From positions 1 to 28,368 of IMG/VR virus record IMGVR_UViG_3300015050_000788: 28,368 nt of DNA; one strand, given 5' to 3'. This stretch comes from a virus (taxonomy: Duplodnaviria > Caudoviricetes). Numbering within the stretch: position 1 is the first letter of the stretch; each line of letters begins with the position of its first letter. The notes under the pieces were generated by a model. It saw only the letters and a list, made by a program, of their open reading frames with translations. It ran no database searches and was not told the origin of the DNA. Of the stretch, positions 7,216-26,374 are shown piece by piece. A program made the translations under genes and the position numbers.

Positions 7216-7476
7216 TTACGGTTTTTGTGACGCAGGATTCATGCCAGACGGCACGGCCGAGGCTCGGATCAAGTCGCTGGCTTCGGCCTGAATTGCGCGG
7301 ATCTTATCTTTGAAGTTTTCTAGCTGCGGAGCTTGAATTCCTTCTAAGGCCTTTTCGAGATCTTGTCGGAATGCTTCGCCGCCGCGAATTACTACGTTTA
7401 GGCGCGACGGGACGTTAACTGTCGCGCGGCCTTTCAGTGCGCCTACATGTCCTTGGTAATTGAATTCAATTGGCAT
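7216..7476 (-). CDS. Hypothetical protein
   Basis: 86-aa ORF starting 4 nt after the scaffold stop. Confidence 0.65.
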   Translation of the reverse strand: MPIEFNYQGHVGALKGRATVNVPSRLNVVIRGGEAFRQDLEKALEGIQAPQLENFKDKIRAIQAEASDLIRASAVPSGMNPASQKP

Positions 7477-12841: not shown

Positions 12842-13359
12842 GCGATAACGGGCGGCGCGGACAAGGTGGAAAGGGCCCCGGGGTTTTGGGCCGGGGTTTG
12901 GGAACGGGCCGGGGAGTTTTGGGCGGCGGGGCCGGGCCCGCTGGATGCTTCAATAATCTTTTCGGAAGCCTTACGCTTTTTCGCTTCAATGTCAACCATC
13001 GCTTGCTGAAGCATCATGATGTTGAAGCTAACGCCCGGCGGAGTTTTGGACTTTTCGTTCCGACCTTTTCCTTCTTCGATCAGGTAACGCAGCCCGCGCT
13101 CGCGAACGGACGGCGGGGTTTTCTCGGCGTTAAGGACTACTTCTTTGTAAGCTTGTACGAATATGTCCATCTCGTCCGCGCGGACGACTTCGTAGGCTTC
13201 AAGATTTCCGGCGGCCGCTTCTTTCAACCGATAGTTATGGTCTCCGCTCAACACGGTCTTAACTAGCGCAAGTTCTAACTCGTAGCCCTCAGCGATCTCT
13301 TCCGCAGACAACCCTTCGTTATAGGCTTGCTTGATTGAGCTGACGAGATTGGTTTGCAC
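12838..13359 (-). CDS. terS: Terminase small subunit (putative)
   Basis: Directly upstream of terL (ATGA overlap); N-terminal HTH-like GLSAEEIAEGYELELALVKTVL. Start moved to GTG 13359 because the track start (TTG 13389) lies inside a -24/-12 promoter motif. Confidence 0.6.
   Translation of the reverse strand: MQTNLVSSIKQAYNEGLSAEEIAEGYELELALVKTVLSGDHNYRLKEAAAGNLEAYEVVRADEMDIFVQAYKEVVLNAEKTPPSVRERGLRYLIEEGKGRNEKSKTPPGVSFNIMMLQQAMVDIEAKKRKASEKIIEASSGPGPAAQNSPARSQTPAQNPGALSTLSAPPVIA
12873..12936 (+). repeat. G-tract array (ten runs of 3-4 G), G-quadruplex-type motif
   Basis: GGGCCCCGGGGTTTTGGGCCGGGGTTTGGGAACGGGCCGGGGAGTTTTGGGCGGCGGGGCCGGG. Confidence 0.75.
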
Positions 13360-13372
13360 GACAAGGTCACCA

Positions 13373-13388
13373 AGCTTATGTCGTGCCA
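13373..13388 (-). promoter_or_regulatory. sigma54-type promoter of the virion operon
   Basis: Minus strand TGGCACGACATAAGCT, GG-N10-GC spacing; predicted +1 near 13362. Confidence 0.7.
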
Positions 13389-13426
13389 ACCGTCGGCGTT
13401 AAGGTTTGTGCCAAGTCGGCGTTAAG
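13383..13426. repeat. Tandem duplication GTGCCAA(CC)GTCGGCGTTAAG
   Basis: GTCGGCGTTAAG at 13392 and 13415, each preceded by GTGCCAA; degenerate third copy at 13430. Confidence 0.8.
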
Positions 13427-13735
13427 ATTGTTGGCGTGAATTGTAACTGAGTACAAAATTGTGAAAAAATTTTCTGGGGACTGTTGTTAGTCCCCGTTTC
13501 CGTTTCTGGGGAGGTCAGTCGAGAACCCTCCGTTTACGAGTGCGAATGTACGAATGTGAACTTGTTTACATGTGAGAAGGTGTTCTCAGAAGTAAGCGTT
13601 CACGGCGGAAAGGTGTTAGCTGTTGGACGCGGAGAAGTCTAGTATGTCTATCGGGATTGTCGATTAAGGTTCGCCGGGCGAAGTCGAATAGTGGCAAGAC
13701 CTTAATGCCTAAGAGTTTCCGGAAATTGTTCGGAC

Positions 13736-14016
13736 TATAAATAAAATATGTAATGGCTTCTAACTATCAAAATATAGTATATATATATATATATATAAGA
13801 TATATATAAAAAGTTACAGTTTTAGACCCTAAAACACCTCATTTTGGCTCTTTTTGGGTATAATTGAGGGTAAAACGAGGCTGAATAAGAGGGTTTTCTT
13901 GTTTAGAGTGTAACTAGTTACAGCCTGAAGGAGCGAAAAGAGGAAAAGTATATATGGATGGTCTTTAAAAACGTGCTTTTGCTTTATATACTGTAATAGA
14001 TTTAGTTACACTCCTA
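13736..14016. other. AT-rich intergenic tract with (TA)10 and AGTTACA boxes; candidate origin or genome-end region
   Basis: (TA)10 at 13778-13797; palindrome TGTAACTAGTTACA at 13909-13922; sits between the divergent arms. Confidence 0.45.
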
Positions 14017-14043
14017 GCCCAAACGGTGCGTGGAGACGCTAGA

Positions 14044-14112
14044 TGTCGGAAAAGCTTACAGTCTGTCGGAAAACTTTACGGCAAATTGCAAGAAAGCGTC
14101 GGTTTACTTTAC
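14044..14112 (+). repeat. Three direct repeats, candidate upstream activating sequence
   Basis: TGTCGGAAAAGCTTAC (14044), TGTCGGAAAACTTTAC (14064), CGTCGGTTTACTTTAC (14097). Confidence 0.7.
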
Positions 14113-14135
14113 ATGCGTTTTGCACGGGCGTTGAT

Positions 14136-14148
14136 CATCAAGGAGTTA
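14136..14148 (+). promoter_or_regulatory. IHF-like binding site
   Basis: CATCAAGGAGTTA versus consensus WATCARNNNNTTR (one mismatch), immediately upstream of a -24 box. Confidence 0.5.
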
Positions 14149-14153
14149 CAGCT

Positions 14154-14169
14154 TGGCATTGACGGTGCT
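14154..14169 (+). promoter_or_regulatory. sigma54-type promoter P1
   Basis: TGGCATTGACGGTGCT, GG-N10-GC; predicted +1 near 14180. Confidence 0.7.
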
Positions 14170-14179
14170 AGTTCTCAAT

Positions 14180-14508
14180 CGTTCATTACAAGCCGAGAAA
14201 GCTCGGACATGAGCCGCGCCAATCGCGGAAGGTTGCTAGCATGGCAGATGACTAGTGACGTATGGGATTTAAGCTTGACCCGCCCCGAAAGGGCGCACGA
14301 AGAACGGTAGGGTAATCGGAACCTGAACCTTGGGACCGGATCGTTGCAGAAGGTCAGCAAACATACGGCTACACTCCCGCAACGGTCTGAGCATACAGAA
14401 CGAGCCGAAAGGCTGGATAACGGTAGCCCGTTAGAACACAAGACGGAGGACAGAAGGCGTCTAATTAGCGCCCGGCAGAATTCACTGCCGGAACTATAGG
14501 AAACCTAT
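14180..14508 (+). ncRNA. Candidate large structured RNA or leader (about 330 nt)
   Basis: Near-continuous helices, two with GAAA-containing loops (CGCCC-CGAAA-GGGCG, AGCC-GAAA-GGCT), and a nested multibranch domain at 14212-14370. Confidence 0.65.
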
Positions 14509-14929
14509 GTATTCAATCGTCACTCCTGAAGTCTGTATTGCTGCGCTCGCCACACTCGCCCCAGAAGGCTGGTCTTTTGAAGACGTGCAACGGAAGACGC
14601 ACAACGTCATCCGCGACAGTCTCCGCGAAATTCAGTTCGCACAAAAGGCACGCAAGGACGGAGCGAAGCTTGTTCGGTTGAAAGTCAACCGCACCAAGTT
14701 CACCGCGAGCTACAGCACGGCGATGCAAGGCGACATCAAAAACGTCAAAGTGAAGATGTTAGACTTGCATGACTGGCTTTGGGATATTCATGAACTGACG
14801 GAGACTTGGGGTGAAGACTCCATCGAATCCGTCACTGTTCCCGATAGGTTGGCAGACTTCGCGAAGGCTATGTTTGTAGCCAAGGAAGCCAAAAACAAGG
14901 CTCCCGATGCGGAGACTGTCAACGCCTAA
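14507..14929 (+). CDS. Hypothetical early protein
   Basis: 140-aa ORF, ATG preceded by AGGA. Confidence 0.75.
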   Translation: MYSIVTPEVCIAALATLAPEGWSFEDVQRKTHNVIRDSLREIQFAQKARKDGAKLVRLKVNRTKFTASYSTAMQGDIKNVKVKMLDLHDWLWDIHELTETWGEDSIESVTVPDRLADFAKAMFVAKEAKNKAPDAETVNA

Positions 14930-14937
14930 GTAATCGC

Positions 14938-15239
14938 GCACTAGCGAGTTAAGTCTCGTTAGATGCCTTATGTCCTCAGTTACGTGTTCTCCGCGCCAAT
15001 CAAAGCGCGGTCTGCCATATAGTTAATCACAAATTGCAATCTCTTTGATTAGAGCCTTAGCAACGCTCTGAGATGTTATTTGTGTAGGGCTTAGGACGCT
15101 CTGTTAGCAAACCGATGGAACGCGATGAAGGGTGTATTACCCATTAGCGAAGTCTACCGGATAACAGTAACAGAACCGTATCCCTCTTTTGCGCAGTCGG
15201 CTAAGGACAGACGTGTTCTGTCTTTTTTGACTGCGTAAA
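14938..15239 (+). ncRNA. Candidate structured RNA (about 300 nt)
   Basis: Helices CTAGCGAG/CTCGTTAG, GTCCT/AGGAC, CCGCGC/GCGCGG, CACAAAT/ATTTGTG, ATCTC/GAGAT, AGAGC/GCTCT, TCTGTTA/TAACAGA and a long closing hairpin at 15188-15239; no ORF in the track. Confidence 0.6.
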
Positions 15240-15342
15240 CAAGCTAGTGGAAACGATACCGTTCGAAGTGTAATAGCCGCCGCGCGCAGCGCGGTGGAGA
15301 CTAAGCTCCTCAATTCGTTACCATAAGTGAAAGGTAATTACT

Positions 15343-15573
15343 ATGTCCAAAACCTACGGTAAATACGCATTCTATGCGACGCCCACCGCGCAAACAGTCA
15401 CCGCGCAGACGGCCCATGCCGCGAGGGCGCACGTAAACATTGTCCGTCCATTGAGCAAAAGGACCGCGAAGCACGACAAGCTAGCAGTACGAGCGGCGCG
15501 AGACGGAATTAAACCATTTAAGGCTCCTGATTACGCCGCGCGGAATGCTGGATTGGTTGGGACGATACATTAA
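15343..15573 (+). CDS. Small basic hypothetical protein
   Basis: 76-aa ORF with AAAGGT upstream. Confidence 0.6.
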   Translation: MSKTYGKYAFYATPTAQTVTAQTAHAARAHVNIVRPLSKRTAKHDKLAVRAARDGIKPFKAPDYAARNAGLVGTIH

Positions 15574-15579
15574 GGTCTT

Positions 15580-15654
15580 ATGAAGAACGTAGTTGAGTGT
15601 ATTGGTGTTATCGTTACCTTTGGAATGGCCTTGTTCTTGTTGTTCTTTGTTTGA
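15580..15654 (+). CDS. 24-aa hydrophobic peptide
   Basis: MKNVVECIGVIVTFGMALFLLFFV fills the gap between the previous stop and promoter P2. Confidence 0.4.
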   Translation: MKNVVECIGVIVTFGMALFLLFFV

Positions 15655-16102: not shown

Positions 16103-16126
16103 GCCACTCTCCGGAGTGGCCTTTTT
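16103..16126 (+). terminator. Intrinsic terminator-like hairpin
   Basis: GCCACTC-TCCG-GAGTGGC followed by CTTTTT. Confidence 0.6.
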
Positions 16127-16546
16127 ATGCAAACCTTCCTCCCGTTCGCGAACTTTACCAACTCCGCGCGAGTCCTAGATACCCAGCGACTCGGTAAACA
16201 GCGCGTCGAAAACTTACAGATACTATCCGCCCTAATCTTCCCGTCCTACGGCTGGCAAGCACATCCGGCGGTCAACATCTGGCGCGGACACGGACAGGCA
16301 CTACTCGATTACCACGAAGCCATCTGTGCCGAATGGACTCGGCGCGGTTACAAGGACACTTGTTTAACCAAGTTCAAAGCTCTTCTCGCCGGACGGACAT
16401 TCCTTTCCGACAAACTTCCGTCCATTATCGGCCATGAACCATTTCACGCGTCGCACCGCGCGGCCTTACTACACAAAAACTTCAAACATTACTCCACCTT
16501 TGGTTGGACTGAAATCCCTCAACTTAACTACGTTTGGAAATTATGA
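16127..16546 (+). CDS. Pyrimidine-dimer DNA glycosylase-like protein (MSMEG_6728 / Pyr_excise family)
   Basis: MQTFLP...SARVLD..RLGKQRVE..QIL...W..HPAV..WRGH...H.SHRA.LL.K...Y signature. Confidence 0.85.
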   Translation: MQTFLPFANFTNSARVLDTQRLGKQRVENLQILSALIFPSYGWQAHPAVNIWRGHGQALLDYHEAICAEWTRRGYKDTCLTKFKALLAGRTFLSDKLPSIIGHEPFHASHRAALLHKNFKHYSTFGWTEIPQLNYVWKL

Positions 16547-16782: not shown

Positions 16783-16890
16783 GATGTTCAATAGAGACGG
16801 TGAGAACTAGCGAGACGCGAGCCTAGATCAAGGTGGTCGCGATATACCTCGAAAAGGATCCTTACTAGCTCACCGTTTCTATTGAGCATC
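16783..16890 (+). ncRNA. Long rod-like hairpin RNA
   Basis: 22-bp stem 16783-16804 / 16869-16890 (two G-U pairs) plus inner CTAG/CTAG, CGAG/CTCG and GCGA/TCGC. Confidence 0.65.
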
Positions 16891-17042
16891 GTGGCTGAGA
16901 GGTTTAAGGCAAAGGTCGCTCCTGTCCGCTAAAATAGTTCTCGGTAAAGTGGTGACATTCCGATGTTGGTTGGAATCGAGCTGGTTTATACGAGTAACGA
17001 ACCCAATCGGACCGCAGGTTCAAATCCTGCCGATGCTCTTCA
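16884..17042 (+). tRNA. tRNA-like RNA with a 103-nt insert in place of the anticodon and variable arms; no assignable anticodon
   Basis: Acceptor GAGCATCG/CGATGCTC, D-arm TGGCTGAGAGGTTTAAGGC, T-arm GCAGG-TTCAAAT-CCTGC. Confidence 0.7.
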
Positions 17043-17177: not shown

Positions 17178-17348
17178 GGCCTTTCGGTGTAGGTTAACCG
17201 TTCAACTTTTGACCACAAGGTCACGGAAAAAAGGCCGGTTCGATTCCGGCTCGGTGGCTGAGTTCTGGTGAGAAGGGAGTCAGGTTCAAATCCTGATGAT
17301 TGTCTTCGCGCTTGACAACGCGGAGTAACTCTGGTGAGACAAAAGCCA
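17178..17348 (+). ncRNA. Two further T-loop-containing tRNA-like elements
   Basis: GCCGG-TTCGATT-CCGGC (17234-17250) and TCAGG-TTCAAAT-CCTGA (17280-17296), without complete cloverleaves. Confidence 0.55.
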
Positions 17349-25531: not shown

Positions 25532-26374
25532 ATGAAAATCGCCCCACCATCTCCCGCCGCAATTACCGCGGGCATAACTGAAATCTCTGCGCGCCGCGGC
25601 TTCGTTGTCGCAGCCACGGAGAAACAAACCTCCGCGCAGGAGTTCGTCACATACGACTCCGACATGCTAGCGGTCCTGCGCAATGCCGAACTTCTCGCCG
25701 AGTATAAGTTTCCCGTCCTTATCCTCGGAGAGTCAGGCACCGGTAAGGAACTCCTCGCGCGTGTCCTTCATGGCAACCGTAACACTATCGCAAGTATCTC
25801 GGCGCGGATGAAGCTCGACTTGTTCTACGCAATCAACTGCTCCGGCATACCAGAAACCCTATTCGAGAGTCTCCTTTTTGGTCACAAGTCCGGCTCGTTT
25901 ACCGGCGCCGAGGGAGACGAACTAGGGCTACTCCGCGCGGCACATAACGGCACCGCCTTTCTCGATGAGGTCGGTGACCTCCCGCCATCTCAACAAACCA
26001 AACTCCTCCGCGTGATCCAGACCGGACGAGTCCGCCCAGTCGGTGACACGACTGAGTATCCTATCAATTGTCGGTTCGTATTCGCTACGAACAAAGACCT
26101 TAAGGCCATGTCTCTTAAAGGTACGTTCCGAGAGGATCTCTACTATCGTATCTCCACCTTTGTTCTCCGCACCAAACCGTTGCGCGACCGAGAGTGCGAT
26201 GTTAAACCAATCGCCGCGCGGATTGCACAGCGGCATAAACTAACACCTTTGGACGACTCGATGTCCATTCCCCCGGCGGCGTATAACCGTGGCAATGTCC
26301 GCTCGTTAGAGAACTGGATGTTGCGGCGAGAACTACTTGGATTATCTGATGATGAAGCTTTAATTGATCTATGA
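25532..26374 (+). CDS. sigma54-dependent activator (bEBP) AAA+ domain-only protein
   Basis: PVLILGESGTGKELLAR, INC, ESLLFGHKSGSFTGA, GTAFLDEVG, QTKLLRVIQ, ATNKDL, FREDLYYRI, PLRDR, GNVRSLEN; no receiver domain and no C-terminal HTH. Confidence 0.95.
   Translation: MKIAPPSPAAITAGITEISARRGFVVAATEKQTSAQEFVTYDSDMLAVLRNAELLAEYKFPVLILGESGTGKELLARVLHGNRNTIASISARMKLDLFYAINCSGIPETLFESLLFGHKSGSFTGAEGDELGLLRAAHNGTAFLDEVGDLPPSQQTKLLRVIQTGRVRPVGDTTEYPINCRFVFATNKDLKAMSLKGTFREDLYYRISTFVLRTKPLRDRECDVKPIAARIAQRHKLTPLDDSMSIPPAAYNRGNVRSLENWMLRRELLGLSDDEALIDL

Follow-up and report, generated by a model that had tools for sequence, protein, structure and literature searches.

The early genes of the window, by which we mean the whole stretch of 28,368 nt that was analysed, are preceded by an RNA leader that is real and structured, with a specific fold that is unproven. 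Because many relatives carry a boxA at this position, the leader plausibly aids read-through of the early genes by host RNA polymerase, and our first choice among the possible explanations, held tentatively and with somewhat less than even confidence, is that it is a cis-acting antitermination signal of the nut/put kind that acts on that polymerase. This reading rests on the promoter motif and its conservation, the boxA sequences of relatives at +2/+3, the terminator-like hairpins downstream and a core shared with the closest relative, L001.

The 28 kb of the window come from a tailed phage that belongs to an uncultured family. Structural genes occupy the minus strand up to ~13390, and the early genes, which include those for a helicase, a PD-(D/E)XK nuclease and a sigma-54 activator, occupy the plus strand from 14507. 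The phage-encoded activator (25532–26374, +) contains an AAA+ domain (PF00158, E 1.5e-55) and has a G001 homologue that is 53% identical. A pyrimidine-dimer DNA glycosylase (PF03013; 16127–16546, +) and a family-2 glycosyltransferase (PF00535; 20696–21625, +) are also encoded among the early genes. An AT-rich palindromic stretch in the divergent region (13761–13816), with similar stretches in L001 and other relatives, is a candidate origin or packaging site. Relatives were fetched by terminase alignment, which yielded 159 loci, the window itself among them. The closest, L001 (51% identity), is represented by a complete genome of 52 kb and encodes the same activator. The nearest cultured match is the terminase of an Akkermansia phage at 32%, and a Verrucomicrobia host is, on that basis, only a guess. 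Contigs with near-identical pieces of the window are present in four freshwater/aquatic metagenome runs from four studies.

Promoters recognized by sigma-54 have GG and GC dinucleotides 10 nt apart in a TGGCA-N7-TGC frame, start transcription 12 nt after the GC, and depend on RpoN together with an activator. The site that we call P1 (14154–14169, +), a motif match to a sigma-54-type -24/-12 element with the sequence TGGCA-N7-TGCT, has this spacing and frame (GG at 14155–14156, GC at 14167–14168) and a predicted +1 at 14180. Between P1 and the first early gene lie ~330 gene-free nt; two overlapping ORFs, one at 14026–14310 (+) that spans the promoter and one at 14175–14441 (-), were set aside. 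The strict motif occurs four times in the window compared with 0.9 expected, and in 19 of 28 relatives a relaxed version precedes the first early gene by no more than 450 nt, compared with 0.37 expected; a putative sigma-54 site ahead of the first early gene is, on these matches, a trait of the family. Sigma-54-type motifs are present in both arms of the window, at 14154, 15654, 16736, 17540 and 22406 (+) and at 7232–7246 (-), and a layout of several such motifs plus a phage-encoded activator recurs in many terminase-related loci. No sigma-54 motif lies ahead of the L001 leader. Two TTGACA-17-TAnnnT motifs were seen by eye in that leader and in the intergenic region 3' of the first gene of L001, suggesting that early promoters there may be of the sigma-70 type.

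boxA-like sequences recur immediately downstream of these promoters. Of 549 distinct sigma-54-type sites, 9 have GYTCTTTRA behind them, compared with 0.6 expected, and in six of these the distance is 27–28 nt, corresponding to +2/+3. Eleven of 28 first-gene leaders contain a boxA with at most one mismatch, and the other 17 are without one in the stretch examined. In a comparison of 26 leaders, no 7-mer family other than boxA was enriched, a result that is partly circular because the leader starts were set in part by boxA. At least 119 loci were recovered by a pattern scan; among the matches listed, eight have the first gene of this family, representing six distinct loci, two of them new, and all have a canonical boxA at 28 nt. 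In the window, the degenerate boxA-like 11-mer GTTCATTACAA (14181–14191, +), which has two mismatches to GYTCTTTRANA, lies 27 nt after the promoter start, in the register of the relatives' canonical boxA (27–28 nt); the background for two or fewer mismatches is 0.11–0.19% per position. The A-for-T variant of the window occurs in none of the eight family loci among the matches listed, and the L001 leader has no boxA with one mismatch or fewer. PMC5725501 gives the rrn boxA consensus as GYTCTTTAANA, and PMC13753749 gives boxA as UGCUCUUUAACA in E. coli and AUGAUCUUUGAAA in B. subtilis; the boxA of the relatives fits the published consensus and ends in TTTGA, as the B. subtilis form does. PMC13753749 also describes boxA as loading NusB:S10 and as all that the rRNA antitermination complex requires.

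The first early gene (14507–14929, +) encodes a protein of 140 aa with one homologue, at 58%. This product has no Pfam or PHROG match and no RNA-binding family was found for it, and its structure model has a pLDDT of 45. No N-like protein was identified, and ORF 14507 has no arginine-rich N-terminal motif by eye. An unannotated family of first early genes with an FGxGRYS motif is present at L039 (7090–7500, -) and 15 other loci; it has no Pfam, PHROG or Foldseek match (helical model with pLDDT 71, best Z 6.1 over 46 residues), and the first protein of the window could not be linked to it. Beyond the first gene, a terminator scan identified a terminator-like hairpin with a T run (15203–15228, +) between that gene and ORF 15343, upstream of the sigma-54-type site at 15654, and another (16103–16128, +) directly 5' of the pyrimidine-dimer glycosylase gene. 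ORF 15343 and the glycosylase gene sit behind terminator-like hairpins, with no sigma-54 motif between. Across the family, 12 of 27 loci, including 5 of the 11 with boxA, have a terminator-like hairpin no more than 80 nt beyond the first gene, compared with 0 of 27 at leader ends and 7 of 27 on the antisense strand. In the window and in L001, the 80 nt next to the first-gene stop contain no sense terminator.

As a whole, the leader folds better than shuffled sequences (z -2.84, 0 of 100 as good; z -3.15, 1 of 300); we relied on these larger runs rather than on a 20-shuffle run that gave z -5.86. Folding is strand-biased, with z -3.15 for the transcribed strand and -1.19 for the other. The signal sits in the 3' hairpins (14396–14509, z -3.81), and the neighbouring ORF (z -3.45) and the next intergenic region (z -3.99) are as structured as the leader. 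That region (14930–15342, +) is a second long structured intergenic stretch in which the leader 11-mer CCGCGCCAATC is repeated, at 14991. Leaders of the family are ~130–450 nt long and structured; their last 170 nt have a median z of -3.08 (19 of 25 at -2 or below), compared with -2.14 (14 of 25) for coding controls.

Six hairpins of the window leader, at 14193, 14232, 14403, 14418, 14472 and 14496, have predicted pair probabilities of at least 0.89. From 5' to 3' on the plus strand, these are CCGAG-AAAG-CUCGG (14193–14206, p 0.99); GUUGCUAG/CUAGUGAC (14232–14259, p 1.00), a helix that is also found at the matching place in L001; the GNRA hairpin AGCC-GAAA-GGCU (14403–14414, p 0.99); UAACGG/CCGUUA (14418–14433, p 0.95); CCGGCAG/CUGCCGG (14472–14491, p 0.89), which has no U-tract behind it; and a hairpin over AGGA and the start codon (14495–14509, p 0.98). 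Less firmly predicted are CCGCG/CGCGG (14214–14228, +, p 0.78) and CGCCC/GGGCG with GAAA in its loop (14281–14295, +, p 0.37–0.52). The strongest predicted helix in the leader is an 11-bp pairing of CGGATCGTTGC with GCAACGGTCTG (14337–14347/14379–14389, +; p 0.77–0.82), partly kept in L001.

These results bear on an original prediction, made from the letters of the window, of a multibranched RNA with a nested, pseudoknotted domain. All 13 helices that it named, and the pair GGACCG/CGGTCT, are present as complementary strands where it placed them, and its picture of a structured, untranslated, promoter-proximal RNA outside all Rfam families is supported, with some natural conservation. The particular nested fold is not supported. 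The multibranch domain at 14212–14395 scores z -0.69, which 42 of 200 shuffles equal or better, its helices AGCC/GGCT (14212/14370, in competition with the CCGCG/CGCGG hairpin), GTATG/CATAC, GCTTGACC/GGTCAGC and AACGGT/ATCGTT have pair probabilities of 0.02 or less, as does AGACG/CGTCT farther downstream, and forcing the domain costs 10.1 kcal/mol in a model that leaves pseudoknot energy out. The 11-bp helix, overlooked in that prediction as was the boxA link visible in relatives, excludes both AACGGT/ATCGTT and the pseudoknot GGACCG/CGGTCT; the pseudoknot is also absent from L001, the only homologue, where its analogue pairs at 3 of 6 positions. Purine-rich linkers had been taken as a sign of tertiary structure, which is not supported: the unpaired bases are 72% purine, compared with 71% in shuffles. 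The hairpin proposed to bury the AGGA and ATG is indeed predicted, in a form that is weak (-4.6 kcal/mol, z -0.82) and at shuffle level (37 of 200 as good); a regulated switch at the ribosome-binding site (RBS) finds no backing, as this hairpin is common to the two alternative folds and does not recur as a feature of the family.

The claim that the RNA belongs to no known family stood. Rfam 15, whose families include riboswitches, ribozymes, GOLLD, ROOL and OLE, gave no match in the window at gathering score and only noise, at E up to 10, in 13300–15500, with no ribozyme or riboswitch match at that E. No riboswitch expression platform was found, the RBS hairpin being present in both constrained folds and no terminator-like site appearing in the scan of the leader or of its last 80 nt. 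Possible likenesses to TPP, cobalamin, c-di-AMP, SAM-I, RNase P, group I/II intron and HDV motifs had no Rfam backing and were rejected. For 10 relatives' loci, Rfam returned only tRNA-type matches and noise. A term search of the main text and six supplements of PMC10690425 gave no match; three further files of that paper could list the leader RNA.

Elsewhere in the window, a tRNA-like RNA at 16885–17040 (+) keeps the acceptor stem and T arm (GAGC...GCAGGTTCAAATCCTG...GCTC), with a long variable insert replacing the anticodon arm. Similar RNAs are present in L001 (4479–4636, -), L028 (4771–4885, -), L039 (3977–4099, -) and L034 (near 4774, -), and two further T-loop motifs lie near 17237 and 17283. 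ARAGORN found nothing in the window, missing the RNA at 16885–17040; in relatives there are weak tRNA matches. The tRNA-like RNAs are possibly a family of tRNA mimics. Directly 5' of the one in the window is a 22-bp inverted repeat enclosing 64 nt (16783–16890, +), a possible processing stem.

Conservation of the leader is visible in L001 alone, as the other family leaders do not align with that of the window. Local matches define a core of ~170 nt (14225–14395, +) in which three blocks, 14225–14239, 14318–14338 and 14379–14395, are collinear with the L001 leader. The three best matches lie on one diagonal with a spread of 13 nt, which was seen in 1 of 1000 shuffles, and none of 27 other leaders has a block spread below 70 nt; this statistic was picked after the L001 match had been seen. 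The first proteins of the two phages are 23% identical. Smith-Waterman alignment of the two leaders is at shuffle level (71 vs a mean of 68; p 0.79 and 0.145), and a shared three-helix fold was not significant (two further position-matched helices, P 0.16). In register, 6 of 11 pairs of the 11-bp helix hold in L001 with no double-sided change, and a shifted 5-bp analogue there has a chance level of 18%. A conserved global fold for the window and L001 is not established. The GCAA tetraloop hairpin AGACTTGGCAACAAGG was seen by eye twice in L001, in the leader and in the intergenic region after the first gene. A 151-nt contig (depth 2) matches 14270–14402 and then, by eye, has GUCCG-GUAA-CGGAU in place of AGCC-GAAA-GGCU; the predicted GNRA hairpin at 14403 is thus compensated in one natural variant, with a different 5-bp stem and a GUAA loop.

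A blastn search with the leader as query gave no match among 50,697 phage records, and blastn and nhmmer against the 159 terminase-anchored loci found only the leader itself. Covariance models built from the window sequence only, one for the originally predicted fold and one for the minimum-energy fold, had no match in L001 with filters off and no homologue among 87 and 90 loci. Pattern scans of viral contigs with the L001-shared blocks recovered the L001 contig; their other matches were put down to chance after inspection by eye and frame checks (25, 4 and 63 loci). Anchoring on the first and second genes gave no new loci. A search of a genome collection returned one short contig.

Several observations count against antitermination: the boxA of the window is degenerate, L001 lacks both boxA and a sigma-54 motif, there is no N-like protein and no shared fold, the terminator scan fires on the antisense strand too, and the coding DNA of the family is also structured. 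A close rival is a plain stabilising 5' UTR, fast-evolving and hairpin-rich, that affects only mRNA stability or translation level; boxA would then be the relic of a decayed site, and no particular fold would be needed. This explanation, which we consider possible if rather unlikely, fits family leaders that are 130–450 nt long, structured and unalignable, a core at shuffle level beside coding DNA that is equally structured, covariance models of either fold that match no homologue, L001 included, and alignment scores against L001 at shuffle level. It is harder to reconcile with three unrelated blocks that are collinear with L001 over 170 nt when the first proteins are just 23% identical, with a GNRA hairpin that was rewritten with its pairing kept, and with a boxA-like 11-mer in the family register. 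The same core is the part common to L001 that would speak for the ornate pseudoknotted domain of the original prediction (14212–14395), a ligand sensor, ribozyme or scaffold for which the nested and 11-bp-helix folds would be two states. The nested helices can all form together and adjoin one another with no linker between, unmodelled pseudoknot or tertiary energy could offset part of the 10 kcal/mol, and neither of two substitutions listed for contig X5 hits a paired base, a weak point in its favour. We nevertheless regard this domain as quite improbable, given four nested helices at p 0.02 or less, an L001 pseudoknot analogue that pairs at 3 of 6 positions, a noise-level score of L001 with the model of the nested fold, an RBS hairpin found in both folds of a leader without a terminator, and no ribozyme or riboswitch match at E up to 10.

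Control could also be translational, with the first-gene product (autoregulation) or another phage or host protein binding the leader as an operator and controlling the RBS hairpin. The hairpin over AGGA and ATG (p 0.98) and the long leader ahead of a small protein without assigned function would suit such an operator, but the hairpin is weak and at shuffle level, accessibility of the start region is between 0.07 and 0.88 in the 27 loci compared (the window being the 7th most occluded), and the first-gene product has no RNA-binding family match, making this possibility a distinctly doubtful one. Least probable is a role of the sequence as DNA, in which proteins would bind sites near the divergent promoter and an AT-rich origin or packaging region and the inverted repeats would be incidental. 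The leader adjoins a divergent control region with the AT-rich palindrome at 13761–13816, and sigma-54 activators bind DNA sites, both of which we counted in favour of this role; the strand bias (z -3.15 vs -1.19) and the presence of G-U pairs and GNRA loops that are meaningful only on the plus strand argue against it.

If the leader is an antitermination signal, transcription would start at 14180 from the sigma-54-type promoter, NusB/NusE would load on the degenerate boxA, and the hairpins or the core would contribute, by analogy with put or boxB. Polymerase would then pass the terminator-like hairpins into the long early arm, for which read-through would be needed. A more specific version, which we think unlikely, is that a new RNA has replaced boxA in this sub-clade, such that the 170-nt core shared with L001 is a folded, two-state, put-like antiterminator that engages host RNA polymerase with no phage protein. 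RNA-based antitermination is known from few systems, and this version, if true, would place a put-like RNA in a phage family with sigma-54 early promoters and its own activator. With its combination of sigma-54 promoters, its own activator and boxA at +3, the family would show directly if Nus complexes can form on a polymerase that started with sigma-54, and the sub-clade with a longer structured leader and a decayed boxA offers a test of whether RNA structure can replace boxA.

The literature search, which left most subscription and older papers outside its reach, found no account of phage leaders that combine sigma-54 and boxA, and the closest known systems each share part of the arrangement. 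GOLLD and ROOL are large ornate phage RNAs, about twice the size of the window leader, and resemble it as long structured RNAs in phage non-coding regions. The window leader differs from them in having no Rfam match and no demonstrated conserved fold and in being joined to coding sequence rather than free-standing. The rrn boxA signal (NusB/NusE/NusA/NusG/SuhB) has parallels too: relatives of the window open a transcript that contains much non-coding sequence with GYTCTTTGANA, and the window has a two-mismatch copy at the same register. Here, however, the operon is a phage early operon with a sigma-54-type promoter, boxA comes first (+2/+3), and the copy in the window is degenerate.

In lambda, the boxB loop is a GNRA-like pentaloop, whereas the first hairpin of the window (14193–14206) has an AAAG loop and follows directly after the boxA-like 11-mer. 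Put and nut systems, according to the available text of PMC8632103, head lambdoid early operons, and the window resembles the nut/N arrangement described there in its promoter, boxA-like sequence, hairpin, long leader and small first gene, as well as in the terminator-like hairpin behind the first gene in 12 of 27 loci. Its first protein is longer than the small, unstructured N proteins of ~110 residues and, by eye, has no arginine-rich N-terminal motif. The put RNA of HK022, which modifies RNA polymerase without help from a phage protein, is a double hairpin of ~65 nt (PMC8632103). Like the window leader, it is a promoter-proximal structured nascent RNA of an early phage operon for which no antiterminator protein of the phage has been identified; the leader is five times longer and has another class of promoter, and any likeness would be one of layout. 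The leader is a member of no catalogued family and works, if at all, in the manner of a boxA, nut or put leader.
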